DNA from: an uncultured Gammaproteobacteria bacterium
Lineage (GTDB): Bacteria; Patescibacteriota; Patescibacteriia; UBA9570
Direction: 5' to 3'
Assembly (NCBI GenBank): GCA_964385285.1
Contig: CAYLOJ010000007.1
Span: 1 to 61,462, forward strand
DNA length: 61,462 nt
The translations under genes were made by a program, and so were the position numbers. Positions 27,122-45,055 of this stretch are shown here, in pieces (positions within the stretch are counted from its first letter, which is position 1; the number at the start of each line of letters is the position of its first letter). A model generated the notes under the pieces. The model saw only the letters and a list, made by a program, of their open reading frames with translations, made no database searches and was not told the DNA's origin.

Positions 27122-27198
27122 GTTCGCATGATTTTTGCAGGACTACTCTTAACCACTACCATTACCACAACACGGACATAACGTGGGTAGTTTGTTTA

Positions 27199-27347: not shown

Positions 27348-27539
27348 ATGTCTACGTATTACGGACAACTGATGGAAGCAGAGTTGGCGGTGCGTGGCCT
27401 GGGCCCTGATGGCAAGCCACTGCAGGGTGACCCAGACATGCATGGCGGCCACCCGGACGCAAGCCCGGACCCCGTGAAGCCGGCGGAAGGCTCGCCTCTG
27501 CCGGCGACGAACGAAGAAGAGGGCTACCACATGCCGTAG
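27348..27539 (+). CDS. GC-rich 63-aa acidic Pro/Gly-rich protein
   Basis: ORF track. SD UGGAGGA lies 7 nt upstream of the ATG. Preferred over the two antisense ORFs. Confidence 0.5.
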   Translation: MSTYYGQLMEAELAVRGLGPDGKPLQGDPDMHGGHPDASPDPVKPAEGSPLPATNEEEGYHMP

Positions 27540-27559
27540 TGAAGGACGCGGCGAGGAGC

Positions 27560-27602
27560 AGGAGGAATTGAGCGCCGCTAGATTTCAGATCTGGCCGCGC
27601 TC
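27560..27602 (+). other. 3' module of the 27348 gene: AGGAGGAA plus a long hairpin (same orientation as its plus-strand ORF)
   Basis: AGGAGGAA at 27560-27567. GAGCGCCGCUAGAU-UUC-AGAUCUGGCCGCGCUC at 27570-27602. Confidence 0.5.
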
Positions 27603-27642
27603 TTTCCATTTCTGAACAGTGTTCAGGATGCGTAACTTTGTC

Positions 27643-27671
27643 TTGACAATGGAGCTTTCTTTCAATAGTCT
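27643..27671 (+). promoter_or_regulatory. Sigma70-type promoter of Y1 RNA
   Basis: TTGACA, 17 nt, TAGTCT. Confidence 0.5.
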
Positions 27672-27676: not shown

Positions 27677-27868
27677 TGTTACTTTTTCATTCCCGTGTGT
27701 TTAAAAAGGTACGCACCTTCAAGCAACGACTCGAGATCAGCCCTCTAGCGGGTTTGGCCACATTCCCCATGGAAATGCGGCACTGCACGTGTAGTCGTGC
27801 CTGACAGCTGTCAGATTATTTTACGATTTTATTTAGTTTTAATGCGACAGGTCACCAGCCTGTTTTTT
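27677..27868 (+). ncRNA. Y-family structured leader/sRNA, copy Y1 (terminated ~75 nt before the FG-GAP gene)
   Basis: Homologous to Y2 and Y3 (GCACCUUCAAG, GGGUUUGG, UUCCCCAUGG blocks). Ends in ACAGG-UCACCAG-CCUGU plus U6. Confidence 0.5.
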
Positions 27869-32175: not shown

Positions 32176-32254
32176 ATAATATGTATTTAAGTACTCAATC
32201 GATGATGAAATACTATCCTTAGATAGTCATGAACGTCAACTGAAATTTACTTTA

Positions 32255-32320
32255 CACCTCCTGTATGAATCATACATGACCCTTACGGGAGGTGGGGCGA
32301 CGGCTTGAAAGCAGTCACCC
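32255..32320 (-). other. Structured 3' region of cassette H
   Basis: CACCUCC...GGAGGUG 7-bp stem (32255-32294) enclosing a UGUAUGA/UCAUACA palindrome and a CC-GUAA-GG hairpin. GGGGUGAC/GUCGCCCC hairpin at 32294-32320. Confidence 0.4.
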
Positions 32321-32354
32321 CGACAACACGATGGCAGCGACTGCTACTTGAACC

Positions 32355-32993
32355 CTACTGAGCGCTCATCATCCGGATGTACGCCACCTGCGCACCTTCG
32401 GCCGTCGGGTCAAAGGAGTAGGTGGCGGCGGTCGGAGCAACACTGCGCGTGGCAGAGATGCTCTTGGTTCGCATCGTGGACGAAGAAGCCGAGACGAGCT
32501 GGACGTGGTTGCGTCCCAACTGCTGCGACTCCCGCGCGACGATGTAGTTGAGCGCGAGGGTGTCGAGCGGAGTCCGGGAGTAGACCAGGTAGAGGTCCTC
32601 CTGGCCAAAGGGCGGGTTGATCTGCAGCGGGGAAGCTTCGGTACCGAACGGCACGGTACCTCCAGCGATAACGTAGTTGGACTCTCCGTCGTATGGAAAG
32701 ACCAGTGCCACGTTTGAAGCAGAGTCAACGTTGACGAGGTACACGTACCCCGTCTGCTGGATGGTCGCCACCATCCAGAGCTTCTCACCGTTGTGGAAGA
32801 TCCGCTCCGGATCCACAGCGCCGGACATCGTCTGGTAAGTGACAGTGGCAAGGTTGGTGGGTGCCTGGATCACACCGAGGCACTTCGCGCCGGGCGGACA
32901 CGCGTAAGCGGGCGTGACTGTGACAAGGGCGAGGAAGAAGACGACAAGGAGCAACCACTGGGGCAGTGTCTTGAAGTCATTGAAGGTAGACAT
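32355..32993 (-). CDS. GC-rich secreted protein, DUF4384-like
   Basis: Signal peptide ...LLLVVFFLALVTVTPAYA. GYVYLVNVDSASNVALVFPYDG resembles the DUF4384 core. Start set at the ATG at 32993; the track TTG is at 33011. Confidence 0.6.
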   Translation of the reverse strand: MSTFNDFKTLPQWLLLVVFFLALVTVTPAYACPPGAKCLGVIQAPTNLATVTYQTMSGAVDPERIFHNGEKLWMVATIQQTGYVYLVNVDSASNVALVFPYDGESNYVIAGGTVPFGTEASPLQINPPFGQEDLYLVYSRTPLDTLALNYIVARESQQLGRNHVQLVSASSSTMRTKSISATRSVAPTAATYSFDPTAEGAQVAYIRMMSAQ

Positions 32994-33040
32994 GGAATCT
33001 CGATTTGCCAACGCGCGTTGATGGCATCTAGGGTAGGGGT

Positions 33041-33200
33041 AAAAAAGGAATGGTCGCGCGCCAACAGTTAAGCATTGCTATGCCAGTCTGATGCAGCGCG
33101 GCCATTCATTTAGTAGCAGTCAGTTGTTAATGATCGTGTCTAAGCGTCGTTTCGGGAATTACTGTCTTCTGGAAGAAGATAAAATCACCAGCAAAAACGA
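33041..33200 (-). ncRNA. Terminated structured leader upstream of cassette H
   Basis: Starts after promoter P_H. CGUCGUUU/AAACGACG helix. Long GAAUGGCCGCGC / GCGCGCGACCAUUC stem followed by U6 (33041-33107), about 50 nt before the ATG. Confidence 0.4.
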
Positions 33201-33206
33201 CGTCAG

Positions 33207-33235
33207 ATGGTACCATGATTTTTCCACTTTGTCAA
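33207..33235 (-). promoter_or_regulatory. Sigma70-type promoter P_H
   Basis: TTGACA (33230-33235), 17 nt, TACCAT (33207-33212). Confidence 0.5.
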
Positions 33236-33255
33236 TGGCTAAGATAAACTAGTTT

Positions 33256-33320
33256 GTAGACTACTGTCTTCAGAATTTGAACCCTATTGTGCAGGCGTTG
33301 CGGCAGTGGCAACAAGTTTT
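33256..33320 (-). repeat. R repeat copy R1 (resembles a tRNA 3' half)
   Basis: Minus strand AAAACUUGUUGCCACUGCCGCAACGCCUGCACAAUAGGGUUCAAAUUCUGAAGACAGUAGUCUAC, followed by the palindrome AAACTAGTTT and the promoter. Confidence 0.7.
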
Positions 33321-33365
33321 AACTTCTTTAAGCTTACCCTTTAGTACTTTTCGTTATATGAATAT

Positions 33366-33863
33366 TCAGTATGTTAGGGCTTCAACAAGGGCCTTGCAAA
33401 AACGCTCTTGCCGCAACACAACACCCTTAGTATTGTGCCATGAACCGTCTCCAGGAATATATAACACGTGTTGACCATGCGCATCCCGATAGATCAGCTT
33501 TACTGCAACAGCGCTGCCATACGCAGTGATGATATGTTGAACGCTAGCAGAGACCACATCTGATTTATTGATACTAATGTTATCCATCGGCTGAAGAGCT
33601 GTGAACGTATAAACGCCCTTCATACAGGTAATACGTATATACCAGGGTGCAATAATTTTACGTCTAGTCGCGTACACAAAAAAAATGCCTAGCACAAACA
33701 TAACACCAACCCCTAACACACTGAGGGGCTCATCGCTACTAACAGGAATTTCTCCCTGAGCCCACAGCCAAATAAAACTACCAAATAATAGACTCATGAT
33801 AACAGGAAAAAATAAAATAATGCCTAGCCGGTCACGAGTTGAATGTCTCCTTTCAAATTGCAT
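33366..33863 (-). CDS. Hypothetical membrane protein (2 N-terminal TM helices)
   Basis: ORF track. Host-like GC. The ATG lies 9 nt after R2 with no promoter in between. Confidence 0.6.
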   Translation of the reverse strand: MQFERRHSTRDRLGIILFFPVIMSLLFGSFIWLWAQGEIPVSSDEPLSVLGVGVMFVLGIFFVYATRRKIIAPWYIRITCMKGVYTFTALQPMDNISINKSDVVSASVQHIITAYGSAVAVKLIYRDAHGQHVLYIPGDGSWHNTKGVVLRQERFCKALVEALTY

Positions 33864-33871
33864 ATAGTAAT

Positions 33872-33936
33872 GTAGATTCCTGTCTTCAGAATTTAAACCC
33901 TATTGTACAGGCATTGCGGCAGTGGCAGCAAGTTTT
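33872..33936 (-). repeat. R repeat copy R2
   Basis: About 85% identical to R1. Lies between hammerhead 1 and the 33863 ORF. Confidence 0.7.
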
Positions 33937-33950
33937 AGCCGGTTCAATTA

Positions 33951-34016
33951 TCCCCTTTCGTCCTTAATCTTGCGATCTAGACTCGTCAGTTTAGGCATTA
34001 CCTAAAGAGGGTGATG
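33951..34016 (-). ncRNA. Type III hammerhead ribozyme, copy 1
   Basis: Minus strand CCCUC^UUUAGG-UAAUG-CCUAAA-CUGACGA-GUCUAGAUC-GCAA-GAUUAAGGAC-GAAA-GGGG. All core nucleotides are present (CUGANGA, G10.1-C11.1, GAAA, A15.1-U16.1, C17). Stems I and II are loop-closed and stem III is open. Predicted cleavage between 34007 and 34006. Confidence 0.8.
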
Positions 34017-34101
34017 AGTGGGGCCTTGGGTTGCAGGAGACGTTGGAACGTTCGCCGCAACACACGTAGGTCCCACCCGCCCTCATACACCATCTGTCCT
34101 C
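34017..34101 (-). other. Conserved structured domain between the cassette-I stop and hammerhead 1
   Basis: Homologous to 36536-36610. Helix GUGGGACC/GGCCCCAC and inner ACGU-UCCA-ACGU hairpin. Confidence 0.5.
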
Positions 34102-34482
34102 TTACTGGCAGCTCACCTCCCAGCCACCGAACGGCTCAGCGGCTCCGATGATGAATGACGGTTCGGCCTCTGGTGCCTGCGGGCATTGCACCCGCCACTC
34201 GTCCGCGAGCGCCTTGGCCCGCTTGATACTGAGCGGCGGGTCCTGGAACGCCTCTTCACTCATCTGGGTGCCGAGTGAAGTGACATGACAGCGCTTGTCA
34301 CTGTGCTGCTTCCAGAACGCGCAGGCAGACCCCAGGTCGTACTTGACGGCCTTTCCATCAGGGCCGAGAGTCGACGAATTCTTCTGATAGAGTACGAATC
34401 CGCGGACTGCGTTATCGGCAGGCATAGCAGCCATGATGCTGAGAACGATGAGAAGAGTGAAGGCAGTCTTGAAAGTTCGCAT
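34102..34482 (-). CDS. GC-rich secreted 126-aa Cys-containing protein (cassette I)
   Basis: ORF track. N-terminal signal-like helix MRTFKTAFTLLIVLSIMAAMPA. Confidence 0.6.
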   Translation of the reverse strand: MRTFKTAFTLLIVLSIMAAMPADNAVRGFVLYQKNSSTLGPDGKAVKYDLGSACAFWKQHSDKRCHVTSLGTQMSEEAFQDPPLSIKRAKALADEWRVQCPQAPEAEPSFIIGAAEPFGGWEVSCQ

Positions 34483-34513
34483 GGGCGCCTTATCCAGGTG
34501 GTGAGAGATACCG

Positions 34514-34564
34514 TTCCACCTGCTTACAGCTGACTTCTAAAAAATCAGATCTAAGCAAGTGGAA
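34514..34564 (-). promoter_or_regulatory. Conserved 13-bp leader hairpin followed by CUCACCACCUGG, upstream of cassette I
   Basis: UUCCACUUGCUUA...UAAGCAGGUGGAA. Homologous to 37137-37186. Confidence 0.45.
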
Positions 34565-34591
34565 CGAGTAATGTATGAGGGTTGTAAAGAA

Positions 34592-34774
34592 CAAAAAACA
34601 GGCGGTTAGCCTGCGTTGTGGAATAGAGAATGAATGGTTGTTTGGCTCGTACGATTACCTCGTACAGTGTCACATTACCATAGGGAACGTGACCAAACCC
34701 ACTTCATAACTTTTCCATTCAGTTATGCTAGTAGTTACTTGAAGGTGCATGTTTTGAGGCATGTCCTCAAAAAC
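34592..34774 (-). ncRNA. Y-family structured leader/sRNA, copy Y2
   Basis: Promoter TTGACA (34804-34809), 17 nt, TATAGT (34781-34786). Four hairpins. Terminator CAGGC-UAACC-GCCUG plus U6 at about 34593-34613. Confidence 0.55.
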
Positions 34775-34817
34775 AGTGGCACTATACTCATGCATATGAG
34801 TTATGTCAAGAATTGCT

Positions 34818-34883
34818 GTAAACCACTGTATTCAGAATTTGAACCCCATTGTACAGGCGTTGCGGCAGTGGCAACAGGTTTTA
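34818..34883 (-). repeat. R repeat copy R3
   Basis: Lies directly upstream of the Y2 promoter. A 12-nt R-end fragment (AGAGUCUACAUA) also overlaps the stop codon at about 34929-34940. Confidence 0.7.
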
Positions 34884-34939
34884 CGGCCTGTATTGGCTTG
34901 ATTTAATAGCCACAGCATTTTTGGAGAATTATGTAGACT

Positions 34940-36250
34940 CTATGACTGCATTGGATACTTAGCCATGAACGCTTCTAACTCGGCAGATAATTTAGCTTGT
35001 TCGGCCTGTAAACGTGTGTGTTCAGCCTGAGCTTGATCTAGCTCGTCGCCATATTGGTTTAAGTGGGGATCAATTGCTTTTTGAAAATCTGCATGTCTAG
35101 CCGCTTGATCGTGTGCCTGGTACTGGCCACGTGGCAAGTTATGTTGCCAAATGTTTTTCTCTACCCGCGATACTTGAAACCAACCAATGGCAGCACCTGC
35201 CGCTGCCCCTAACGCAGCCATTGGAATGTTTGGTTCACCAGTCTGCCCCACGTTGTACATGACACCCGCCATGCCCATAATGCCAGCAGTACCTAAAGTG
35301 ATATGCGCTACCTTTAACATTTCCCAAATTTGATGAGCAGTTACCCGTAATTGAATAGAGGCATCTCTTGCATCATAGGCATGTTGGCGAGCTGCTAAAT
35401 ACTGCTCAGCATCTTCTGCATCTACCGCTAATTCAAAATATTGTGCCAGCAATTCATTCAAGCGTTGGCCAGCCGTACGTATCTGTTCAATTAAGTTGGT
35501 CACTGCTGGTTCGGGTTCGTTGACTGCAGGTTGGCGCGGATCTTTGAATTTCACGTTACCATCACTCCCCAACCGATCAATTTCTAACTCTATCTCATGA
35601 ATTTCTTCTCGCAAAGATCGTAACTCTTCAGTCAGAGTAGTAATTTGTAGATTGCGATTTTCTGGAGTACCAGCGCGTTGTTCCGCCCGGCGTTGTTTGG
35701 CAGCTCGATAGCGTTCTAATTCTGGGTACTGAGCAAACCAACGCTCAGAATAATCGTGAGATTCCTCCATACGCGACAAACCAAATTCCACCGCTGAACC
35801 AGCCATGGCCCCACCAGCTGTGGCCAACGCTGTCATGGCAGGATCCTTAGTGAGCATATACGCTCCAGCACCAACACCAGTGCCTATAATTGAACTAGAA
35901 GTAACGTAACGTGTTACTGCCCAAGCCAGTTTAGCTGCTTTAGCTTTTATCTCGGCAAAACGTTGAGAATTTTGATTAAGTTGTTCAAGTGCTTGAATAC
36001 TGCGTTCTGCTCCTTCCTGAGCTTGCAACAATTTATAGTAGTGACTTAAGGCACTATCAAATTTTCGACCTGATTCTGCTAAATAGTCCAAATAGGCCTT
36101 TAAGGTTTCTGGAGTGGCTTCACCTTGGAATTCTAAAAGATTTTTAGCATGCTCTTCAGGTTGATGGTTAGGCAACGCAACCTTTGGTTCCAAATGGACT
36201 ATCGGTTCCGGTGGACGACGAAAGGGTTGACGAGTACGTTCAATACTCAT
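34940..36250 (-). CDS. Hypothetical coiled-coil protein with two glycine-zipper membrane segments
   Basis: ORF track. GTGVGAGAY...GGAMAGSAV and GTAGIMGMAGV...LGAAAGAAIGW. Confidence 0.6.
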   Translation of the reverse strand: MSIERTRQPFRRPPEPIVHLEPKVALPNHQPEEHAKNLLEFQGEATPETLKAYLDYLAESGRKFDSALSHYYKLLQAQEGAERSIQALEQLNQNSQRFAEIKAKAAKLAWAVTRYVTSSSIIGTGVGAGAYMLTKDPAMTALATAGGAMAGSAVEFGLSRMEESHDYSERWFAQYPELERYRAAKQRRAEQRAGTPENRNLQITTLTEELRSLREEIHEIELEIDRLGSDGNVKFKDPRQPAVNEPEPAVTNLIEQIRTAGQRLNELLAQYFELAVDAEDAEQYLAARQHAYDARDASIQLRVTAHQIWEMLKVAHITLGTAGIMGMAGVMYNVGQTGEPNIPMAALGAAAGAAIGWFQVSRVEKNIWQHNLPRGQYQAHDQAARHADFQKAIDPHLNQYGDELDQAQAEHTRLQAEQAKLSAELEAFMAKYPMQS

Positions 36251-36251
36251 A

Positions 36252-36416
36252 TTAGGATTGTGTGGATCTTAGTTGAGCTTGGATATCATCAGAAAAAGAT
36301 TCGATGTCCTGGTTCAGTTGTTGAAAGGCTAATTTCACTTCTGCAGGAGAAGCTTTACCCTGAGCGATTTTCTCGCACAAGTCATCAAAGTTTAATGGAG
36401 TATTATCATTCGCCAT
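36252..36416 (-). CDS. 54-aa hypothetical protein, translationally coupled to the 36250 ORF
   Basis: Hand-translated MANDNTPLNFDDLCEKIAQGKASPAEVKLAFQQLNQDIESFSDDIQAQLRSTQS. Its TAA stop lies 1 nt before the next ATG. Confidence 0.45.
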   Translation of the reverse strand: MANDNTPLNFDDLCEKIAQGKASPAEVKLAFQQLNQDIESFSDDIQAQLRSTQS

Positions 36417-36431
36417 AAATAGATATAGACA

Positions 36432-36459
36432 ATTTTAGCAGATTTTAGGAAAAAATCAA
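36432..36459 (-). promoter_or_regulatory. Candidate promoter for the 36416 operon
   Basis: TTGATT, 16 nt, TAAAAT, immediately downstream of hammerhead 2. Confidence 0.4.
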
Positions 36460-36470
36460 GCGCAAATGAT

Positions 36471-36535
36471 TCCCTTTCGTCCTTGATCTTGCGATCTAGA
36501 CTCGTCAGTTTAGGCATTACCTAAAGAGGGTGATT
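36471..36535 (-). ncRNA. Type III hammerhead ribozyme, copy 2
   Basis: Same core as copy 1. The single stem II difference (GAUUAAGGAC to GAUCAAGGAC) converts a G-U pair to G-C. Predicted cleavage between 36526 and 36525. Confidence 0.8.
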
Positions 36536-36610
36536 GAGTGAAACCTTGGGTTGAAGCTGACGTTGGAACGTCACCAGCAACACACTTAGGTTCCACTCGC
36601 CCCTCATACA
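36536..36610 (-). other. Conserved structured domain between the cassette-J stop and hammerhead 2
   Basis: GUGGAACC/GGUUUCAC replaces GUGGGACC/GGCCCCAC of copy 1 (compensatory). GCUG/CAGC replaces GCGG/CCUGC. Confidence 0.5.
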
Positions 36611-37108
36611 CTAGTACCGCATGCACACCTGCGCCGTCAGCTCTTCACAGTTCGCAACGTGTGAATCTGGAGTACTCGCGAGACACTGTTCGTACAGGTA
36701 TCGAGTAGCGACGGGGGTGCACAGAGTGGTTGGATCGAACTGTTCGTAGTCCGACCACGGAGCCATGATCGGCCACTCATCCCACTTCGTTGGCATTCGA
36801 CCCAACTGCAGCGCGCGCCAGTTGCAGTTCGACTCGAGTGCGAGAAGTTTGATACTGGCACCCTGGGTATTCATCAGAATGACCTGCATCTGCTCCTCGT
36901 CACACAAAGGCGGCGGGTGCAATGTAGCGTCCATTTCCGTGAGCATGTACCGGAAGAGATCGGACATCGCCCGCTCTCTATCAAGTGACAACTCGAGCTT
37001 GTGAATCTTCTTGGCCTGCTCGATGAGCGCGTCCTGCTTTCGATGAGCGCACCCGCTGCTCAGGAGGATGATGAGGAGGACGACGATGGTCTTCAGCTGT
37101 GTGTACAT
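36611..37108 (-). CDS. GC-rich lipoprotein, 165 aa (cassette J)
   Basis: Lipobox LLSSGC. Seven further Cys. SD GGGAGAG. Confidence 0.65.
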   Translation of the reverse strand: MYTQLKTIVVLLIILLSSGCAHRKQDALIEQAKKIHKLELSLDRERAMSDLFRYMLTEMDATLHPPPLCDEEQMQVILMNTQGASIKLLALESNCNWRALQLGRMPTKWDEWPIMAPWSDYEQFDPTTLCTPVATRYLYEQCLASTPDSHVANCEELTAQVCMRY

Positions 37109-37136
37109 TTGTCTCTCCCAGGTGGTGAGATTAGGG

Positions 37137-37186
37137 TTCCACCTGCTTACAACTGACTTCGTAAAATCAGCTCAAAGCAGATGGAA
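37137..37186 (-). promoter_or_regulatory. Conserved leader hairpin followed by CUCACCACCUGG, upstream of cassette J
   Basis: Homolog of 34514-34564. The downstream UCUCACC...GGGAGAGA could sequester the SD. Confidence 0.45.
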
Positions 37187-37212
37187 CAGATAGTGTATGA
37201 AGGTTGTAAAGA

Positions 37213-37401
37213 ACAAAACAGCAGGTGTTTCACCTGCTTTCACATTACGATTGATTGTACTCATCTAGACCTCTTTACAGGCAACGCGATTAACTCGCGC
37301 GGTACTACGCCACCATAGGGGGTGTAGTCGAACCCACTTGAACCTGTGTTCAAGTTGTTTCTAGAAAGTGCATGTTTTTACAGATGTGTATTCTGTAAAA
37401 A
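37213..37401 (-). ncRNA. Y-family structured leader/sRNA, copy Y3
   Basis: Promoter TTGACA (37431-37436), 17 nt, TACCAT (37408-37413). Terminator GCAGGUG-AAA-CACCUGC plus U-run at about 37214-37237. Confidence 0.55.
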
Positions 37402-37460
37402 CGCGCCATGGTACACCAAAATACATGTTTTGTCAAGACCTAATAGACACTGCTTTGTAT

Positions 37461-37525
37461 GTAGACTCTGTCTTCAGAATTTGAACCCTATGGTACAGAC
37501 GTTGAGGAAATGGCGGCAGGTATTA
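37461..37525 (-). repeat. R repeat copy R4 (most diverged)
   Basis: ...ACGUCUGUACCAUAGGGUUCAAAUUCUGAAGACAGAGUCUAC, upstream of the Y3 promoter. Confidence 0.6.
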
Positions 37526-37573
37526 GTATTCACTAGCTCTATTCACCTCTATTGAGATGAACACAGTATGCGT

Positions 37574-37602
37574 GAGAAGGGGGTAGCTCTTCTCGTCCTC
37601 CA
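37574..37602 (-). other. Cassette-L 3' module: UGGAGGA plus hairpin
   Basis: GGAGGA at 37596-37602. GAGAAG/CUUCUC stem at 37574-37594. Preceded by the CGCACAU/AUGUGCG hairpin. Confidence 0.45.
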
Positions 37603-37660
37603 ATGTGATTTGCGCACATCTACCCCTGGATCATGGAATGATCAATGTGCGACTAGATCT

Positions 37661-38203
37661 CTACTTCCGCCGGCGGAATCCAAACAGCGGGAAGAGCAGC
37701 GTTGCTGCGAAAGTAATACCTTGATTACATCCTCCGCACTCGACAGAATCCTTGTCGTCTCCCGTATCGCTCTCCCCAGAATCGATCTCGACCGACTGGG
37801 TGTAGAGGTTCACGCTGGTGCCGTCGACGAAAACCGCGAGGGTCGAATCCCGGTTTCCCTCCAACCAGGCCTCGTAGAGGCTCTCGGGGATGTACGCCGT
37901 GAACTCGTCACCGGTCAGGTCATAGTCGAAGTCCTCCCGCCCGTTGGGGAAGAGATCCGACTCACTGGCCCACGTGGACAGCCATTCGTAGTTGCAGACC
38001 TCATCGCCGTCGTCGAGCAGGAAGTTGTACACGACCTGGATTGAGTCGTAGCCGCTTGGGCTCTCGACGCCCGGGGTGAACGAGTTGGCATCGACCACGA
38101 TGGCGGTCGCCGACTCGCAGAATGCGTCGTTTGAGCCGTCGGCTCCCATGGTGTAGTCAGCGTCATCGGCGAGTGCTGCCGACAGGAACAATGAAAACAA
38201 CAT
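37661..38203 (-). CDS. GC-rich secreted acidic protein with a MYXO-CTERM/GlyGly-CTERM-like sorting tail (cassette L)
   Basis: Start moved to the ATG at 38203 (MLFSLFLSAALA signal peptide, SD UAGGAGAG). C-terminus ECGGCNQG-ITFAATLLFPLFGF-RRRK. Confidence 0.6.
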   Translation of the reverse strand: MLFSLFLSAALADDADYTMGADGSNDAFCESATAIVVDANSFTPGVESPSGYDSIQVVYNFLLDDGDEVCNYEWLSTWASESDLFPNGREDFDYDLTGDEFTAYIPESLYEAWLEGNRDSTLAVFVDGTSVNLYTQSVEIDSGESDTGDDKDSVECGGCNQGITFAATLLFPLFGFRRRK

Positions 38204-38316
38204 CACTACTCTCCTACTACTTCTGCTGGAACATTCCAGCAGCCAAGCAACTTTTCGAGTTACGAGGACTAAATAGACTATCGCGTAATCTATTCCATCC
38301 CAGTAATTCGACAAAC

Positions 38317-38460
38317 AAAAAAGACCCTTACTGGGTCATTTCCTAAAAACCTCTTCATCAGAGGGAACAACGACCGGATGGTCTTTTGTTTTGAGTGTTG
38401 TTAACGGAGTGCAGCCTAGCTCCGTCTCGTTACGTAACGAGATTAAATTTTCAATGAGGC
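38317..38460 (-). ncRNA. W-family structured leader/sRNA, copy W2
   Basis: Hairpins UCUCGUUAC/GUAACGAGA, CGGAG/CUCCG, AACAAC...GACC-AUCC-GGUC...GUUGUU and CCUCU-GAUGA-AGAGG. Terminator GACCC-AGUAA-GGGUC plus U6. Confidence 0.5.
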
Positions 38461-38464
38461 CAAC

Positions 38465-38493
38465 AGGTTAAGGCAAAATGTGATTTTTGTCAA
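38465..38493 (-). promoter_or_regulatory. Sigma70-type promoter of W2
   Basis: TTGACA (38488-38493), 17 nt, TAACCT (38465-38470). Confidence 0.45.
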
Positions 38494-38513
38494 TAGGTAA
38501 CGTAAACTAGTTT

Positions 38514-38578
38514 GTAGACTACTGTATTCAGAATTTGAACCCTATTGTGCAGGCATTAAGGCAGTGGCAGCAAGTTTT
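38514..38578 (-). repeat. R repeat copy R5
   Basis: It occupies exactly the position that the tRNA-Glu 3' fragment occupies in the W1 unit. Confidence 0.7.
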
Positions 38579-38602
38579 ACAGTTCGTAAACTGAATATAA
38601 AA

Positions 38603-38630
38603 ACAAAAAACACCAGCGAATGACTGATGT
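38603..38630 (-). terminator. Rho-independent terminator of cassette K
   Basis: CAUCAG-UCAUUCG-CUGGUG plus U6. Confidence 0.6.
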
Positions 38631-38673
38631 TTTTTGGGGTGGGTATCTTCTTTCTGCTCGATATGAATCGGCA

Positions 38674-38716
38674 GTGGTGAGATACCAGCGACCCTTACGG
38701 ATCTAACCTATCCTCC
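38674..38716 (-). other. Cassette-K 3' module: CGGAGGAUA, GUAA-tetraloop hairpin, CACCAC
   Basis: GGAGGA at 38711-38716. GAUCC-GUAA-GGGUC at 38690-38703. CACCAC at 38674-38679. Confidence 0.45.
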
Positions 38717-38732
38717 GAATCCTAACATGAAG

Positions 38733-39266
38733 CTATGGGCAGGTATGTCCATCATCGACGTTACCGTCGCAGTCATCATCGATGCCGTCGCAGTTCTCGT
38801 CGGGGGCACCAGGGTGAATTGCTGCGTTGGTGTCATCGCAGTCACTGGAACCAAGCGCGTAGCCCTCGGGGGGCTCGGCCGCACAAAAGTAGTCCCCTGT
38901 CCCTGCTCCGTAACCATCTTCATCCAGGTCCGGATAATAGATGGTCTGGCCGGTCAGCGTTCCCGGCCCCTCGTCTTCGTCGATGGCCCCGTCACAATCG
39001 TTGTCGATGCCATCGCAGGCCTCGGAATCTTCGGGACTCCTTCCACCATAGACGTCATCACGATCATCATCGCAGTCATCGTCATTGGTGACGTATCCTG
39101 CCGGGACGGGGTCACCACCACAGGCCTCCCAGATTTCCCGGGGATCACCACGACCATCGCCATCGAGATCGGCATACCAGGTTTTTGTAGGGTCGCCGCA
39201 ACCCGTATCGTTTTTTACAACGTTGACTGTGCATGCAAGAAGACCGAGGAGTAGAACGAGCAACAT
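38733..39266 (-). CDS. GC-rich lipoprotein with MopE-type putative metal-binding Cys/Asp repeats (cassette K)
   Basis: Lipobox LGLLAC. Two repeats of the form DCDD...PGAPE.CDGIDNDCDG preceded by DLDGDG(Y/R)G. Confidence 0.75.
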   Translation of the reverse strand: MLLVLLLGLLACTVNVVKNDTGCGDPTKTWYADLDGDGRGDPREIWEACGGDPVPAGYVTNDDDCDDDRDDVYGGRSPEDSEACDGIDNDCDGAIDEDEGPGTLTGQTIYYPDLDEDGYGAGTGDYFCAAEPPEGYALGSSDCDDTNAAIHPGAPDENCDGIDDDCDGNVDDGHTCP

Positions 39267-39437
39267 GTACTTCTCACAAAGACGTCCTAAACCGTCCCCT
39301 ATTTTTCAAGCGTTGTGGACTAGCTGTTCAGGCAGCTATTTTTAGCACTACTGGTTGCTACTAAAACTAAAGTCCTGACTGTATCCCTAAACATACAGAG
39401 ATAAAGTTAGAACGTTACTTTAAGAAACTAGGCAATA

Positions 39438-39581
39438 AAAAAAGACCCTTACTGGGTCATTTCCTAAAAACCTCTTCATCAGAGGGAACAACGACCGGAT
39501 GGTCTTTTGTTTTGAGTGTTGTTAACGGAGTGCAGCCTAGCTCCGTCTCGTTACGTAACGAGATTAAATTTTCAATGAGGC
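39438..39581 (-). ncRNA. W-family structured leader/sRNA, copy W1
   Basis: Part of a ~203-bp direct repeat (39438-39640 versus 38317-38519) with only 3 mismatches, all in the promoter spacer. Confidence 0.5.
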
Positions 39582-39585
39582 CAAC

Positions 39586-39614
39586 AGGTTAATCCAAAAT
39601 GTGGTTTTTGTCAA
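39586..39614 (-). promoter_or_regulatory. Sigma70-type promoter of W1
   Basis: TTGACA (39609-39614), 17 nt, TAACCT. Confidence 0.45.
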
Positions 39615-39634
39615 TAGGTAACGTAAACTAGTTT

Positions 39635-39654
39635 GTAGCCCCACAGGGAATCGA
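39635..39654 (-). repeat. 20-nt duplicate of the tRNA-Glu 3' end (att-like direct repeat)
   Basis: gtagccccacagggaatcga is identical to 39793-39812. It cannot fold as a tRNA on its own. Confidence 0.8.
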
Positions 39655-39750
39655 CCACTCCGCCCAATTCAGAAATTGGGCTCCGGGCCGGGGCTTGTGC
39701 TCGTCTGTCACTGACAGCCGTGCTCGCCCGTTCGATTCCTCCACGAACCA
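39655..39750 (-). other. Orphan GC-rich fragment without an ORF, carrying a GGAGGAA + hairpin module
   Basis: Minus strand GUGGAGGAAUCGAACGGGCGAGCACGGCUGUCA-G-UGACAGACGAGCAC... It lies between the two copies of the tRNA 3' end. Confidence 0.4.
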
Positions 39751-39751
39751 C

Positions 39752-39792
39752 AAAAAAATAAAAACCCCACGGATGTGGGATTTTTATTTTTC
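39752..39792. terminator. Bidirectional terminator after tRNA-Glu
   Basis: CCCAC-GGAU-GUGGG hairpin (39766-39779) flanked by A- and T-runs. Confidence 0.7.
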
Positions 39793-39793
39793 G

Positions 39794-39865
39794 TAGCCCC
39801 ACAGGGAATCGAACCCTGGTTTGAGCGCTGAGAACGCTCCGTCCTAACCGTTAGACGATGAGGCC
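39794..39865 (-). tRNA. tRNA-Glu(CUC)
   Basis: 72-nt cloverleaf folded by hand: GGCCUCA/UGGGGCU acceptor, GUCU/GGAC D stem, GAGCG-UUCUCAG-CGCUC anticodon arm, 4-nt variable loop, CAGGG-UUCGAUU-CCCUG T arm. CCA is not encoded. Confidence 0.85.
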
Positions 39866-39964
39866 AAAAAATGCTTCGCTATTGTATCCGACTTTACAAT
39901 ACAATTCAAGATCAACTGTTCCATCGCAATGACAAATGGCAAAAAATGTGAGATAATTCTGCAT

Positions 39965-41332
39965 ATGAATATACATGAACGCCCAGCTACACGTCATCAT
40001 AACGATAGCGAAGAAGTCAAAGTGCTTAATCAGGTGGAAGGCCAACCCTCTGATGATACCGGAGAAGTTGCCCCTGATCTGAACGATACAGAAACAGCTC
40101 CGGACCATGCCGAAACACTGGCTCAAATCGAACAAATCCAATCCTTGCTGGAACGACAAAAACAACAAGTCAGTAAAGAACGTGGCGCGTTTGGTCGTCT
40201 AGTTTCGCTATTTAAAGAGAAGATCATGCGGACGGATTCTGAAGAAAAGAAACTGTCTAGCAAGATCTCTGCCTTAGAGCAATGGCGTAATAAGTTACTC
40301 GCCGATCCATCCGACACTGGTTCTGCTCGTGAATTCCTCAAACTCAATCATAGTAATGAACTGCTTGCTACAAGTGATCATGATCGCCGGTCAGATCGTC
40401 TGGCTACTACTCTATTAGAACGAGCAGCTACCGCTGGCAATGTGCTCGATGAAGGTGAGGCAAACCGTGCTGCCGAACTCATAGCCAAAGAAGAAGATGA
40501 AATTGCTGCCCGTTTTTTTGATGAAGGTGATGAGCTGAATAAACAGGCTGAATTGGAACAGACTCTACAAGAACGTACAACGAGTGCCTATAAAGAAAAA
40601 TTAGCCTCTATCCAACCATCCGTTGAGGCCAAGATTGCCGCACTACAACAAGCTGCTGAAGATGACCGTGAGATTAATTCTGAATTAGCTGAATTGTCAC
40701 GCTCTAAAGATGGTAGGCTGATCCATAGAGATCGTGTGGTTGAGACATGGTTTAACCTAGGCACCGCGATGAATTTAGACAGTGAAATTGAACAAGCCAA
40801 AAAACCACTGACCAAGTTATACCAAGAACAACTGCACAAAGGTGCTAAATCTATGCGTGCTCAAATGAAAGCCTTTGAAGGCTTATTAAGCGGACGCTTT
40901 AGTATCAGCAAGTTTTCTGGAATTATCGAACAGGTGCGACGCGAATTAGGACCAGGTTTAGTCATCGATAAATCGATGCGTGATAGTGCCGATGCTGATC
41001 TGGCTGGTATGCGCATTAAAGATCGCTTAGAACGCATGCAAAAAACCTTACCGACAGAGATTAAAAGTTTGCTACAACATAAAGATACCGTTGAATTATA
41101 CAGCCTAGGTGGTGGAGATATTGGCGCGATCGACGGACAGACGGTCGTAACCATTCCAAGTGAACTACTAGCAAAATGCGCTATTGATGCCGGTGAAGTA
41201 GATCGACTACTCCCCTCTTCATTGGAAGATTTACAAAACTACGCTCGTCAGCCAGACAAGGATGTGCTTGCTGAACTAGCAGCTGCAAATCAGCAGGATC
41301 TATCCGGCTATCAAGATAAAGAAGTGGCATAG
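39965..41332 (+). CDS. Hypothetical coiled-coil protein
   Basis: ORF track 39929..41332. Start tentatively placed at MNIHERP. Confidence 0.55.
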   Translation: MNIHERPATRHHNDSEEVKVLNQVEGQPSDDTGEVAPDLNDTETAPDHAETLAQIEQIQSLLERQKQQVSKERGAFGRLVSLFKEKIMRTDSEEKKLSSKISALEQWRNKLLADPSDTGSAREFLKLNHSNELLATSDHDRRSDRLATTLLERAATAGNVLDEGEANRAAELIAKEEDEIAARFFDEGDELNKQAELEQTLQERTTSAYKEKLASIQPSVEAKIAALQQAAEDDREINSELAELSRSKDGRLIHRDRVVETWFNLGTAMNLDSEIEQAKKPLTKLYQEQLHKGAKSMRAQMKAFEGLLSGRFSISKFSGIIEQVRRELGPGLVIDKSMRDSADADLAGMRIKDRLERMQKTLPTEIKSLLQHKDTVELYSLGGGDIGAIDGQTVVTIPSELLAKCAIDAGEVDRLLPSSLEDLQNYARQPDKDVLAELAAANQQDLSGYQDKEVA

Positions 41333-41406: not shown

Positions 41407-42426
41407 TTATTTGGCTAGCTTCTTGCCGGCTTGCACAGCCATATCAATCAAGCGATTGGCATAGCCGAATTCGTTATCGTACCAACTGACGACTTTGACT
41501 AAATTACCACCTACAACCATCGTTAACTCTAAATCCACAATGGATGATTCAGGACGACCAACAATATCACGCGATACTACTGGCTCATTGGTCACAGCTA
41601 AGATTCCTTTATAATTGGCAGAGTTAGCTGCATCAGTTAAGGCTTGGTTCACCTCTTCAACGGTGACATCCTTTTTCAAAATCATGGTCATATCAGAAAC
41701 TGATCCAGCTGGAGTAGGCACGCGTAAAGCAAAACCATCAAAGATACCTTGATAACTAGGCATCGTTTTACCAAATGCTTTGGCCGCGCCAGTCGAGGTA
41801 GGAATGATATTGAGGGCAGCTCCACGTGCACGTCGGAGGTCTCCCCCGCGATGTGTGCCATCGACTAGATTTTGATCAGCTGTATAGGAGTGGATGGTAG
41901 TCATCATGGCCTTCTCTACTCCGAAGGAATCCATCATCACTTTCATGACTGGACCGATGCAGTTCGTGGTGCAAGAAGCATTGGAGGAGATGGTATCGTT
42001 ACCGATCTCTTCCTGATTCACCGACATCACGTAAGTACCAATATCTTTATCTTTCGCAGGCGCAGAGATAATCACATGTTTAGCACCGGCCTTCAAATGT
42101 TGACTCGCTAATTCACGAGTTAAGAACATGCCAGTGCATTCGAGTACGATATCGGCCCCAACTTCACCCCATGGAATTTTGGTCGGATCCTTTTCAGAAA
42201 AACGACGATATTTTTTTCCGTCTACCACTAAGTAATCTTCCCCTTCTGTAGTGACGACGTGAGGATATTTTCCGTAGACACTATCGTATTGTAAAAGATG
42301 AGCAGCCATGGCTAAACTTCCCAAACCATTGATGGCCACAACTTCTAATTCAGGGTTGGCTAAAGCGATACGGAAAGCGGCAGCCCCGATGCGACCGAAA
42401 CCATTAATAGCAATACGTGTAGGCAT
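41407..42426 (-). CDS. gap: Glyceraldehyde-3-phosphate dehydrogenase
   Basis: INGFGRIG and SNASCTTNC active-site motifs. Confidence 0.95.
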   Translation of the reverse strand: MPTRIAINGFGRIGAAAFRIALANPELEVVAINGLGSLAMAAHLLQYDSVYGKYPHVVTTEGEDYLVVDGKKYRRFSEKDPTKIPWGEVGADIVLECTGMFLTRELASQHLKAGAKHVIISAPAKDKDIGTYVMSVNQEEIGNDTISSNASCTTNCIGPVMKVMMDSFGVEKAMMTTIHSYTADQNLVDGTHRGGDLRRARGAALNIIPTSTGAAKAFGKTMPSYQGIFDGFALRVPTPAGSVSDMTMILKKDVTVEEVNQALTDAANSANYKGILAVTNEPVVSRDIVGRPESSIVDLELTMVVGGNLVKVVSWYDNEFGYANRLIDMAVQAGKKLAK

Positions 42427-42514: not shown

Positions 42515-43444
42515 CTAGTAAACGGGTGTCACCCAATGTTTATACTGCGGAATTTTCCCGTAGACAATCTGCCCATAGAGCTGCTGTAGCTGTGTAGCGA
42601 TTGGACCAACTTTGCCATCACCAATCGTAAACTGGTCCACCTGGGTGACCGGGCTGACTCGCGCGCCGGTACCTGTTAATATTACCTCATCTGCAAAGAC
42701 TAATTCAGAGCGATCAATTGAGCGCTCCAACGTTGGAATGCCTTGATCTCGCGCTACTTCTAACAACGTTTTGCGCGTCACTCCTTCCAGAATGTTATCC
42801 GTCACTGGCGGAGTAATTAGTACACCATCACGCACCATAAAAAAGTTTTCCGCACTCCCCTCTACCACGTGCCCATTATGATCCATCACCAAAGCCTCAT
42901 CATAACCGGCCAATAACGCTTCGGTTTTCGCAAATGCCGTATTCACATACGCTCCGTTTAATTTTCCACGCGCTGGAATCGCATTGTCATCCACCCGTCG
43001 CCAACTACTAATTTTACATTTCATTCCGGTGGTGGGAATGTAATCGCCCAATGGGAAAGCAAAGATGGCTAATGCATCGGTGTACCCATTCCATTGCACA
43101 CCAATACTCTCCGCATCGACAAATGCTGAAACGCGTAAGTAAGCATCTTGTTTGATCTGATTCACTTTGAGTAGATCTACTAAGATCTGTGTAAACTTGT
43201 CGGCTGTATAGTTTTGGACAAAATGATTAAACATGCATAATTGGCAAGCATGGCGAAAACGATGGTAGTGTTCCTGTGGTCTGAATAGATACAACTGCTG
43301 CTCATCAGCATTATAATGAGCGCGAATGCCAGTAAAGGCGCCCATGCCATACAAAAAACTGACGTTGGCGATACTAACATTCGCCTGGTTAAAATCGACG
43401 AACTGGTCGCGGAAATAGACTTTGCATGCTTTGAAATCGAACAT
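42515..43444 (-). CDS. ilvE: Branched-chain amino acid aminotransferase
   Basis: Fold-type IV aminotransferase features and operon context. Confidence 0.85.
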   Translation of the reverse strand: MFDFKACKVYFRDQFVDFNQANVSIANVSFLYGMGAFTGIRAHYNADEQQLYLFRPQEHYHRFRHACQLCMFNHFVQNYTADKFTQILVDLLKVNQIKQDAYLRVSAFVDAESIGVQWNGYTDALAIFAFPLGDYIPTTGMKCKISSWRRVDDNAIPARGKLNGAYVNTAFAKTEALLAGYDEALVMDHNGHVVEGSAENFFMVRDGVLITPPVTDNILEGVTRKTLLEVARDQGIPTLERSIDRSELVFADEVILTGTGARVSPVTQVDQFTIGDGKVGPIATQLQQLYGQIVYGKIPQYKHWVTPVY

Positions 43445-43455
43445 AGGATTATAAT

Positions 43456-44529
43456 TTAGCGTGAATGATAATTTAAGATTTGTTCCGTAAACTGCTCCGT
43501 GGATACTAACTTCACCCCTGAGTTTTCTCGATAGAGATCAGCCGTACGATACCCATTAGCGAGAGTTGCTTGAATGGCTTCGCGAATCCAGCTGGCCTCC
43601 GCCGTTAATCCAAACTGCTCACAGAGCAAAGCAGCAGATAAAATAGCAGCGATCGGGTTTGCTAGATGCTTACCAGCAATATCGGGTGCCGAACCATGGA
43701 TTGGTTCAAAGATGCCAATGCCATCCCCTACACTGGCCGAGGCTAACAACCCTAAACTACCACTCAACTGAGCGGCCTCATCGGTGAGGATGTCACCAAA
43801 CATATTTTCTGTCACCACCACATCAAACTGTTTGGGTTGGCGAATGAGTTGCATGGCGGCATTATCGACAAACATATGCGTTACTGTGACATCGGGAAAC
43901 TGCGCAGCTTCGGCCTGTACCACTTCGCGCCATAAGCGCGAACATTCCAACACATTGGCCTTATCAACTGAACACAGTTGTTTACGTCGCCGCTGAGCTG
44001 CTTGGAATGCCATACGCACAATGCGCCGCACTTGAAATTTTGAATAGCGCATTGTATCGATCGCTTCTTCTCCATCTTCGCTCCGGTGGCGAGGTTCACC
44101 AAAATAGATACCACTGATTAATTCACGAAAAAATAAGATATCGACCCCCATTAGTAACTCTGGTTTCAAAGAAGACGCAGCCACTAACTCGGGGTAAATA
44201 CTCACTGGACGGACATTTGCATAGACATCCAACAGTTTGCGTAACTGTAATAATCCTTGCTCCGGGCGGACCTTAGCACTGGGATTTTGATCATATTCTG
44301 GTAAGCCCACTGCACCTAACAATACCGCATCCACCTCGCGGAGTTGCTGCTGAGTGCGTTCTGGTAAGGCGCTGCCAGTGGCTTGAATTGCAGCCGCACC
44401 GATTAAGCCCTGACTAAACTCAAAGGTATGTTGAAATTGTTGGGCGATCAACTCTAACACACGCACTGCTTGTGCGGTCACCTCTGGCCCGATGCCGTCA
44501 CCGGGCAGAACGAGGATGCGCTTGTTCAT
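43456..44529 (-). CDS. leuB: 3-isopropylmalate dehydrogenase
   Basis: [13 protein letters not shown] and NMFGDILTDEA motifs. Start placed at MNKRILVL; it overlaps the leuD 3' end. Confidence 0.9.
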   Translation of the reverse strand: MNKRILVLPGDGIGPEVTAQAVRVLELIAQQFQHTFEFSQGLIGAAAIQATGSALPERTQQQLREVDAVLLGAVGLPEYDQNPSAKVRPEQGLLQLRKLLDVYANVRPVSIYPELVAASSLKPELLMGVDILFFRELISGIYFGEPRHRSEDGEEAIDTMRYSKFQVRRIVRMAFQAAQRRRKQLCSVDKANVLECSRLWREVVQAEAAQFPDVTVTHMFVDNAAMQLIRQPKQFDVVVTENMFGDILTDEAAQLSGSLGLLASASVGDGIGIFEPIHGSAPDIAGKHLANPIAAILSAALLCEQFGLTAEASWIREAIQATLANGYRTADLYRENSGVKLVSTEQFTEQILNYHSR

Positions 44530-45055
44530 ACTGTGTAATGAAATCATTAAATTGCATCGTATAGCCCAGATCGTCTAAACCTGTAACTAACCGCAGTTTA
44601 TTAAATGGGTCGATGTCGAAATGTATTTGTTGATCCGCCCACTGAATGGTTTGTGCAACCAAATCAACGGTAACTGTAGCATCGGCTAGTTGTTCTAGAA
44701 TAGCGGGTGGTAATGCGATCGGCAAGAGATCGTTTTTCATCGCATTATTTTTGAAAATATCGGCAAATGATTCGGCAATAATCACGCGAAACCCGTAATC
44801 GTGCAAGGCCCAAGGCGCATGTTCACGTGAAGATCCACAGCCGAAATTGACTCCGGCTAATAAGATTTGCGCCCCTTGATAGCGCGGTTGATTCAACACA
44901 AAATCTGGTTCTTGTCTCCAATTACTAAAGACGTGCGCACCTAAACCACTTTTGGTTGTCACCTTTAAATATTCCGCAGGAATGATCTGATCCGTATCGA
45001 CATGATCACGCCGTAACGGAACTACGAGTGAAGTAATAGGTTGGTAGGTATTCAT
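44498..45055 (-). CDS. leuD: 3-isopropylmalate dehydratase small subunit
   Basis: [17 protein letters not shown] motif. Confidence 0.9.

Follow-up and report, generated by a model that had tools for sequence, protein, structure and literature searches.

Cis-mobilizable elements (CIMEs) have no recombinase gene, are flanked by attachment (att) sites and accrete together with integrative and conjugative elements (ICEs) in Streptococcus, and the archaeal tyrosine integrases of the SSV1 type are encoded by a gene that contains attP and is split into two large parts upon integration into a transfer RNA (tRNA) gene. In the tycheposon model, tRNA-proximal islands arise from the serial integration of site-specific elements, a minority of which use large serine recombinases (LSRs) (Hackl et al., bioRxiv 10.1101/2020.12.28.424599). 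Our literature search found no description of site-specific integrative elements like those treated below in Patescibacteria, the ultra-small bacteria of the candidate phyla radiation (CPR). Here we analyze an entire NCBI contig (CAYLOJ010000007.1; 61,462 bp, ~46% GC; "the window" from here on), in which a 7.6 kb region beside a tRNA-Glu gene holds five copies of a repeat, R. This region is probably a recombination hot spot where small elements of a Patescibacteria LSR family have piled up in tandem next to the tRNA gene. The five R copies are the far-end scars of LSR elements, and none of the units that they delimit keeps a recombinase. A preliminary description, made from the sequence alone, had listed the tRNA-Glu gene, the R repeats, promoters, structured RNAs ending in terminators, and open reading frames (ORFs) with a high GC content at third codon positions (GC3), all of which are real.

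R repeats and the end of a recombinase gene

R is present in exactly five copies in the window, all within 33256-38580 and all in the orientation of the tRNA gene, where none is expected by chance; the repeat is 59-94 nt long, and over 66 nt its copies are 83-92% identical to each other. We scanned public collections with the R core and retrieved one contig of a metagenome-assembled genome (MAG; L001) and three metagenome contigs (L003-L005), and IMG/VR, scanned for R as well as for W and the Y 3′ element (the latter two are treated below), gave no matches. In L005, the reverse complement of R encodes the end ('...SSLV|DHCIQNLNPIIQDIQKWYEYLGQIKYSKI') of an LSR of 536 aa with Resolvase, Recombinase and Zn_ribbon domains. 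The LSR of L003 is 92% identical to it up to '...NSSLV' and then ends in 'APTGFEPVLPH', which comes from the reverse complement of tRNA-Glu. In this pair of contigs, the LSR ORF crosses the attachment junction; Patescibacteria LSR ORFs that cross attP are located at 83-1618(-) in L003, 6262-7872(-) in L005, 1321-2907(+) in L008 and 2539-4092(+) in L009. A homologue search with the LSR returned 266 relatives, and every named one belongs to the Patescibacteria. We listed the C-termini of the best 120 of these 266 matches: most close with ...G[IF]EP..., which is a tRNA T-arm in reverse and corresponds to the integrated state, and a few have R-type tails of the form VDYCIENLHPL[VI]LDI[KR][KR]W..., as do P0012, P0013 and P0126. 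The tail of the free form is a conserved stretch of ~29 aa, VD[HY]CI[QE]NL[NH]P..W.., and that of the integrated form consists of ~11-13 aa from the reversed tRNA.

Read on the plus strand, all five R copies of the window give V[DN][YSH]C[LI]QNLNP[IM]VQ[AT]LR[QK]W[QR]QVL, that is, peptides like VDYC[LI]QNLNPIVQALRQWQQVL. These fragments, which match LSR residues ~507-532, are the only LSR-like sequences in the window, and neither tblastn nor Pfam scans of the ORFs of the region found a serine or tyrosine recombinase catalytic domain anywhere in it, which bears out the earlier statement that the window has no recombinase gene. The LSR frame is the only stop-free one among the six frames of the R consensus. 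Synonymous variants in this frame number 11 of the 19 distinct ones among the five copies, whereas a share of 20-28% would be expected (P = 3e-4 to 6.5e-3). For integration at the tRNA gene of the window the predicted LSR tail is 'VAPQGIEPWFER', and P0049, the LSR of L009, ends exactly so; the LSR of this genome would end in ...VDYCIQNLNPIVQALRQWQQVL in the free form and in ...VAPQGIEPWFER when integrated. These comparisons identify R as the last ~22-30 codons of an LSR gene joined with the P arm of attP. The preliminary description could not match the architecture to any described element, a view that gives way to R as an LSR tail plus attP arm and to relatives that carry the full LSR at tRNA-Glu, the orthologous locus included. 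It had also allowed for a repeat family with a known mobility gene, which is largely what the LSR family turned out to be.

R might instead work for the host, as a tRNA-sized small RNA or as a promoter or insulator element, with its likeness to a recombinase being secondary. In L003-L005, R is preceded by TTGACT-N17-TATATT, which could give an RNA of ~72 nt ending in CCA; in most units of the window it lies between a terminator and the next promoter, and its first hairpin shows some compensatory change between lineages when the alignment is read manually. Nevertheless, this would-be promoter overlaps the stop region of the LSR on the opposite strand, R is in frame in intact LSR genes on circular elements, and it carries a third-codon-position bias. 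Moreover, one R is found directly before an ATG and one R of L001 between convergent genes, and neither Rfam nor ARAGORN makes a call on R, the negative ARAGORN result also being the ground on which we rejected R as a tRNA gene. A host element of this kind is therefore very unlikely.

Both states of the element are found among the relatives. L003 and L004 start with tRNA-Glu(TTC), and in L003 R is located 11 kb from this tRNA gene and is followed by 'CCA' and the terminator of the tRNA. L005 is a circular permutation of L003 in which R is joined to the DNA that follows tRNA-Glu in L003. Because the ends of L005 and L008 overlap by 126 nt and 30 nt (k-1 for Logan), these two contigs, both of which carry an R-tailed LSR, are circular molecules of ~11 kb. 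Besides the LSR, L005 carries genes for a type III restriction-modification system, AbiV, a tyrosine integrase and a helix-turn-helix (HTH) protein, and no replication genes were seen in it. In L006, an LSR abutting tRNA-Glu is followed by cargo and an R-tail relic over ~10 kb, the LSR of L007 also adjoins tRNA-Glu, and the same holds for the integrated loci as a whole (4/4 examined); full LSR genes are present in L003, L005, L006, L007, L008 and L009. In L009 (46% GC) the order is LSR, tRNA-Glu(CTC) and GAPDH, where the tRNA gene is 97.5% identical to that of the window and GAPDH shares 79.6% nt identity with window 41407-42426, so that the orthologous locus in this relative is occupied by a full element with an intact LSR. 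Recombinase-less, R-terminated units with a single ORF are also found in L001 and, immediately behind tRNA-Glu, in L004. L003 and L004 come from one metagenome and have different inserts at the same tRNA, and the inserts of L009 and the window likewise differ at the att boundaries. GC-rich ORFs (55-69% GC) are found near tRNA-Glu or R in relatives of 37-46% GC, at 11480-11655 in L003, 2700-3900 in L004 and 5520-6587 in L009, including a DUF444 gene in L009.

The attB half-sites of LSRs carry the zinc-ribbon-domain motif 5 bp nearer to the center than those of attP (Rutherford et al., PMC3783163). In our sequences the start of a GGGTTC[GA]A..TTC motif precedes 'CTA|' by 23 nt in tRNA-Glu and by 28 nt in R, in all three independent pairs (window, L003/L005 and L006), and this 5-bp offset fits a P arm in R and a B arm in the T-arm and acceptor of the tRNA. 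The geometry thus favors a serine enzyme over the co-resident tyrosine integrase, and the crossover would fall in or beside CTAC. Among the relatives, hybrid attL and attR sites, as well as attP on circles, are seen when L003 is compared with L005, in L006 and in the circular contigs L005 and L008. In the window, the junction of a tRNA copy with W1 ('...GGGGCTAC|AAACTAGTTTACG') is attL-like, and the R|W2 and R|H junctions are attP-like.

The DnaK of the window is closest, among the best named matches, to proteins of Candidatus Kerfeldbacteria and other Patescibacteria (81-88% identity), so the host belongs to the same phylum as all the named LSR matches. On the basis of DnaK we rejected 'Gammaproteobacteria', the label of the L001 MAG, as the host taxonomy in favor of Patescibacteria. 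L001 itself (CAZSXL010000013.1), labeled 'uncultured Gammaproteobacteria', holds two R copies of the window subtype, and its label or binning may be wrong. A look-up of the exact GAPDH protein in other assemblies gave no match.

The six units and their proposed history

The five R copies split the region into six units, E1-E6 (Table 1), each of which ends in R except the most distal one. The module boundaries that had been placed at R stand, but R had been taken to start each module, and the sequence is better parsed with R ending it. Likewise, most modules do combine a promoter, a leader RNA and a GC-rich ORF, as had been claimed for all of them, but the unit at 33256-33871 lacks both the leader and the GC-rich ORF. 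The three interleaved host-GC genes are present as described.

Table 1. Features of the island and related features elsewhere in the window (positions on the 61,462-bp contig).
Feature	Position	Strand	Contents	Basis
tRNA-Glu(CTC)	39793-39865	-	T-arm and acceptor 3′ strand, candidate B arm of an attB-like site	ARAGORN, Rfam, junction table
Short relic	39729-39752	-	24-nt reverse complement of another tRNA's 3′ end, reads 'VVRGGIER'	sequence reading
tRNA-like pseudogene	39632-39712	-	last 28 nt copy the tRNA-Glu 3′ end	weak tRNA-like match and junction table
Cassette E1	38513-39631	-	P′-like start AACTAGTTTACG, W1 promoter, W1 RNA (39437-39599), MopE-motif lipoprotein ORF (38733-39266), terminator (38604-38636), R (38514-38580)	
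Cassette E2	37459-38512	-	P′-like start AACTAGTTTACG, W2 RNA (38316-38478), secreted ORF (37661-38206), R (37459-37526, frameshifted)	
Cassette E3	34818-37458	-	Y3 promoter, Y3 RNA (37214-37401), hairpin leader (37109-37214), lipoprotein ORF (36611-37108), R (34818-34884)	
Cassette E3, further contents	34818-37458	-	3′ element (36465-36610), host-GC genes 36252-36416 and 34940-36250	
Cassette E4	~33871-34817	-	Y2 promoter, Y2 RNA (34592-34774), hairpin leader (34483-34592), secreted ORF (34102-34482), 3′ element (33946-34100), R (33872-33938)	
Cassette E5	~33255-33870	-	one host-GC membrane-protein ORF (33366-33863), R (33256-33322); without leader RNA	
Cassette E6 (distal)	~32230-33254	-	P′-like start AACTAGTTTATC, H promoter, H RNA (33038-33200), DUF4384 ORF (32355-32993), 3′ hairpins (32230-32354); no terminal R	
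Third Y RNA member	27711-27804	+	outside the island, upstream of a host-GC FG-GAP gene	
GC3-rich ORFs outside the island	1844-2242, 11250-11594, 11793-12003, 12097-12402, 15214-15591, 25231-26358, 26805-27041	-	AT-rich promoter, often a terminated structured RNA, GC-rich 3′ hairpin	
GC3-rich ORF outside the island	27351-27590	+		

A common start, AACTAGTTTAYSTTA, is shared by W1, W2 and H and resembles the last codons of the LSR of L009 at ~17/21 nt (manual alignment; weak), and the start of Y2 is shared with the unit that follows one R in L001. To the right of R we found CCAAAGAGG..., TTTTTTAAAT..., AACTAGTTT... and CAGCAWTTCT..., which represent at least three unrelated types. At the array's proximal end, the functional tRNA-Glu is followed by its own terminator (39754-39791), so its site is an intact and unoccupied attB-like site. 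The copy of its 3′ end that had been reported downstream is real, although it measures 28 nt at 89% identity, not 20 nt; it is located at 39632-39659, 158 nt downstream of the tRNA gene. Between the terminator of tRNA-Glu and the pseudogene that contains this copy lies the short relic at 39729-39752, which reads like the tails of integrated-state LSRs and suggests a further, older recombination relic.

The relatives show how these elements change state. In the free circle, R encodes the last ~29 codons of the LSR and also serves as the P arm of attP. Once the element has integrated at the tRNA-Glu 3′ end, its LSR gene adjoins the tRNA and has gained a short new tail from the reverse complement of the tRNA, and R has become attR on the element's far side. 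For the array we propose the following history. The units in the window would be either deletion derivatives of such elements or non-autonomous cassettes on which an LSR with its gene elsewhere acts in trans, with new units entering at the tRNA-proximal end and older ones being pushed outward. Accretion of this kind would need an enzyme that accepts a tRNA arm plus any right arm as its target, and because the right arms are very diverse, we suggest that the enzyme may rely chiefly on the left arm, in which case accretion would be possible. Alternatively, the tyrosine integrase or homologous exchange among the R copies could have built the array. Tandem accretion at a tRNA att site, which the preliminary description had mentioned as a superficial resemblance, is the reading that the evidence favors.

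Several observations weigh against this reading. Canonical LSRs recombine only attP with attB, and integration destroys attB, so tandem accretion would not be expected from them. The anchoring on tRNA-Glu put forward in the preliminary description is not supported, for the array hangs on a decayed partial copy of the gene and the functional tRNA keeps its own terminator, and the history must therefore have been more complex than simple serial insertion. The junction table gives no R|B′ junction in the window array, which instead has R|P′ junctions resembling a whole attP, and only the W/H type of right arm resembles an LSR 3′ end, weakly (~17/21 nt, manual alignment). The test of synonymous sites drew on 19 variants in 66 nt. 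The circular elements encode a tyrosine integrase as well, so either enzyme may have built the array, and neither an intact LSR nor a circular form of a cassette was found for this genome, which is represented by one contig.

The repeats also lend themselves to an origin in place, in which one or a few original integrations were followed by duplication of the W1/W2 and Y2/Y3 modules and their adjacent R through unequal or homologous recombination, with the ORFs swapped later, so that the R copies would be paralogous duplicates and not separate scars. W1 and W2 are 96-98% identical over 200-216 nt (the shared block of 216 nt at 96%), the Y2 and Y3 modules share both flanks (~400 nt of 5′ region and a 3′ element of ~140 nt) around unrelated ORFs, and R could itself mediate homologous exchange, given its length and identity. 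However, the differences between R copies are mostly synonymous in the LSR frame, which indicates divergence within a working gene and not decay in place. Furthermore, W1 is preceded by the tRNA copy and W2 by R, the duplicated block thus excluding the upstream neighbor, and R-terminated single-gene units with other cargo exist in other lineages (L004 and L001). We consider an origin in place unlikely and prefer the accretion of LSR elements.

In a bolder version of that preferred history, the R copies would be live parts of a cassette system that is based on an LSR and functions in CPR bacteria as an analogue of the integron; this is possible but, in our judgment, doubtful. If it were true, R-ended, recombinase-less single-gene cassettes would be captured at tRNA-Glu and re-excised in variable blocks by an LSR acting in trans. 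Whichever R was used would complete the LSR frame, so the protein tail would switch with the recombination state and might set directionality, and the synonymous bias in R divergence would reflect ongoing selection and not history.

An integron-like array in the strict sense, with a tyrosine enzyme of the IntI type inserting cassettes of an ORF and an attC at an attI by the tRNA, is extremely unlikely. The units share one orientation, mostly hold a single ORF and have structured 3′ elements, a resemblance already remarked upon in the preliminary description, and the circular relatives also carry a tyrosine integrase. Nevertheless, the likeness fails in every defining feature that we tested. 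There are 0 pairs of RYYYAAC...GTTRRRY cores on either strand of 32230-39866, so the earlier statement that attC-like cores are absent was correct, and tblastn with the tyrosine integrase and Pfam scans of the ORFs of the region found no IntI-like sequence in the window. The cassettes have their own promoters instead of being promoterless and expressed from a common Pc: TTGACA-N17 promoters were found by scan for Y2, Y3 and H, and those of W1 and W2 (TTGACA-N17-TAACCT) come from a by-eye reading only. In addition, the cassette-end repeat is recombinase coding sequence and not a folded attC, and the 3′ elements are common only within the Y type.

Leader RNAs and GC3-rich genes across the contig

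The combination of a promoter, a structured W, Y or H RNA and a GC3-rich secreted ORF is a contig-wide way of packaging and expressing accessory genes, and it represents cargo of the island and not mobility machinery. In the island, the five ORFs for secreted proteins or lipoproteins have a GC3 of 0.58-0.78, versus 0.34-0.43 in their neighbors, the leaders and 3′ elements form better folds than their dinucleotide-shuffled versions do (z = -1.6 to -4.7), and intrinsic terminators end W1, W2, Y2 and Y3 (scan). The layout of promoter, leader, GC3-rich ORF and 3′ hairpin recurs without R at 25100-27650 and 11100-12500, and GC3-rich ORFs (GC3 0.80-0.90) are found at 1844-2242, 11250-12402, 15214-15591 and 25231-27590, equipped with promoters of their own, structured RNAs that end in terminators, and 3′ hairpins, but with neither R nor a tRNA. 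This layout had been presented as the design of the mobile modules, which is not supported, since it extends over the contig and a Y leader also precedes a host-GC gene outside the island. Near 11-12 kb, a 42-nt GC-rich hairpin repeat, 95% identical between its copies (11188-11229 and 11715-11756), follows two neighboring GC-rich ORFs, and the terminator hairpins at 11660-11700 and 12005-12040 have a TTGACA/TTGACC -35 box in the loop ('cggaTTGACAaatccgtttttt'), forming compact terminator-promoter units.

The ORFs had been described as foreign-looking, and their codon and amino-acid usage is indeed unlike that of the host. When the GC-rich ORFs were pooled and compared with 20 host genes, AAG made up 91% of Lys codons (27% in the host), ATC 90% of Ile codons (37%) and TTA 1% of Leu codons (38%), and the Lys content was 2.8% versus 5.2% and the Cys content 2.4% versus 0.8%. 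The tRNA-Glu(CUC) reads only GAG, which accounts for 73% of the Glu codons in the GC-rich ORFs and for 35% in host genes. When each of 35 ORFs of the window and its relatives was compared with all the others by BLASTP, no paralogy was detected, so the cargo genes are mutually unrelated, and PADLOC and PHROGs gave only noise-level matches for ten ORFs in and around the island. The ORF at 37661-38206 ends in a Cys/hydrophobic/RRRK C-terminus; a MYXO-CTERM guess for it was unsupported, and NCBIfam gave a weak, sub-threshold match to Synerg-CTERM.

A recent transfer from a sequenced GC-rich donor was rejected, given how few homologues there are: the ORF at 36611-37108 has a single one among 1.84 billion representatives, and the DUF4384 ORF has two, both of them GC-rich ORFs in AT-rich flanks. 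The unit of H leader, DUF4384 ORF and 3′ hairpin is conserved in L011 (70% nt identity), where it follows a different tRNA and has no R; its ORF is again GC-rich within AT-rich flanks, and its leader hairpin shows compensatory changes at three pairs. With respect to the syntenic L013 (DnaK 92%), the GC-rich ORFs occupy variable spots, and one GC-rich homologue, beyond BLASTN detection, has been kept in place in a backbone that is 76-81% identical. Because the few homologues are themselves GC-rich in AT-rich flanks, the GC-richness is old and maintained, and no donor is nameable.

The sharp GC3 contrast, together with repeats of 60-216 nt that could confuse assemblers, might also be taken as the mark of an artefact, that is, a chimeric contig in which foreign GC-rich DNA was joined to an AT-rich genome at the repeats. 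The preliminary description had raised this concern. Two Logan contigs from SRR12487046, each the product of an independent assembly, match 33780-35328 and 36565-38133 at 100% identity, and because both of them span the junctions between host, R and GC-rich DNA, a chimeric assembly is unlikely, even if these contigs probably come from the MAG's own read set and could share an error. Moreover, the same unit of AT-rich leader and GC-rich ORF is kept in L011, from another sample, a homologous GC-rich ORF stands at the syntenic spot in L013, and at least six loci hold embedded GC-rich ORFs that are precisely flanked by promoters and terminators. Taken together, we assign an artefact a negligible chance.

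The Y RNAs are located at 27711-27804(+), 34645-34750(-) and 37280-37373(-), each upstream of a secreted-protein gene. In each, two neighboring hairpins, of which one has a conserved CCCYAUGG loop, precede an intrinsic terminator, and compensatory change is seen at 8 of 26 pairs. Y is a genuine new structured RNA family, and a host regulatory RNA rather than an island part because its third copy precedes a host-GC gene outside the island; our guess is that it acts as an attenuator-type leader for secreted-protein genes. A covariance model of Y found only the three window copies in the 200 kb searched and none in 140 kb of DNA from relatives, and Rfam searches with W, Y and H at gathering and permissive thresholds returned only the tRNA and nothing credible at E <= 5.

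Elsewhere in the window, 42515-55841 apparently encodes a leucine/isoleucine/valine biosynthesis cluster, as read from the translations, and L013 contains a histidine operon by Pfam (1-6516). Amino-acid biosynthesis pathways of such kinds are uncommon in CPR bacteria. Two large coiled-coil proteins of host GC, not homologous to each other, are encoded at 34940-36250(-), as part of the E3 cargo, and at 39929-41332(+); the former has two paired hydrophobic hairpins and matches SLATT/DndD/LmuB models at noise level only.

Comparison with known systems

With these results, a repeat architecture that looked unclassifiable becomes a testable mobile-element model with a recombinase family, a target and candidate att sites. 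The elements of this family carry restriction-modification and Abi defense genes in relatives, and well-defined LSR att pairs would be useful as parts for genome engineering. The island is also set apart from a second phenomenon, the secreted-protein genes, rich in GC3 and evolving fast, that are scattered over these genomes behind AT-rich promoters and structured leader RNAs and that may bear on how episymbionts deal with their hosts.

The LSR family is ordinary in its domains and att geometry. Like the large serine integrases of A118/LI, Bxb1, phiC31 and SPbeta, it combines Resolvase, Recombinase and Zn-ribbon domains with short att sites, the 5-bp motif shift and, in relatives, hybrid attL and attR sites after integration. 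What is unusual is that in this CPR/Patescibacteria family the gene spans attP, so that integration swaps the tail of the protein: unlike in the four named integrases, the ORF runs across the site and its C-terminal ~29 residues change with the state of the element. The target also differs, being the 3′ end of a tRNA gene, and tandem P-arm scars are not predicted by a strict attP x attB reaction. Further unusual features are a boundary repeat that is a coding tail with a signature of purifying selection, single-gene units without a recombinase, and the CPR host.

The exchange of a protein end recalls the SSV1-type integrases, where the recombinase ORF likewise overlaps attP, the target is a tRNA and the product differs between the free and integrated states; here, by contrast, the exchange is confined to the C-terminal tail of a bacterial serine recombinase, whose catalytic part remains whole. 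With CIMEs the array shares recombinase-less, att-bounded modules in tandem at one site that are thought to use the recombinase of a neighbor, but CIMEs depend on tyrosine integrases, have identical core repeats and span many kb, whereas here the enzyme is probably a serine recombinase, the arms are not identical and the modules are single genes. As in integrons, a same-orientation array of mostly single ORFs would grow at one end by a fixed site; unlike integrons, it has no IntI, no attC, a promoter for each cassette and a recombinase of another class. Finally, the island resembles tycheposon islands in its proximal tRNA, in the partial tRNA copies and recombinase remnants inside it and in its single orientation, and also in the model by which newer elements push older ones outward and degenerate, cargo-only pieces persist. 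It differs from them in its CPR host, in units that go down to one ORF (0.6-1.1 kb) and in a boundary repeat that is a recombinase-gene tail, as attP arm, and not a partial tRNA, and no replication or hallmark genes of tycheposons were seen here.

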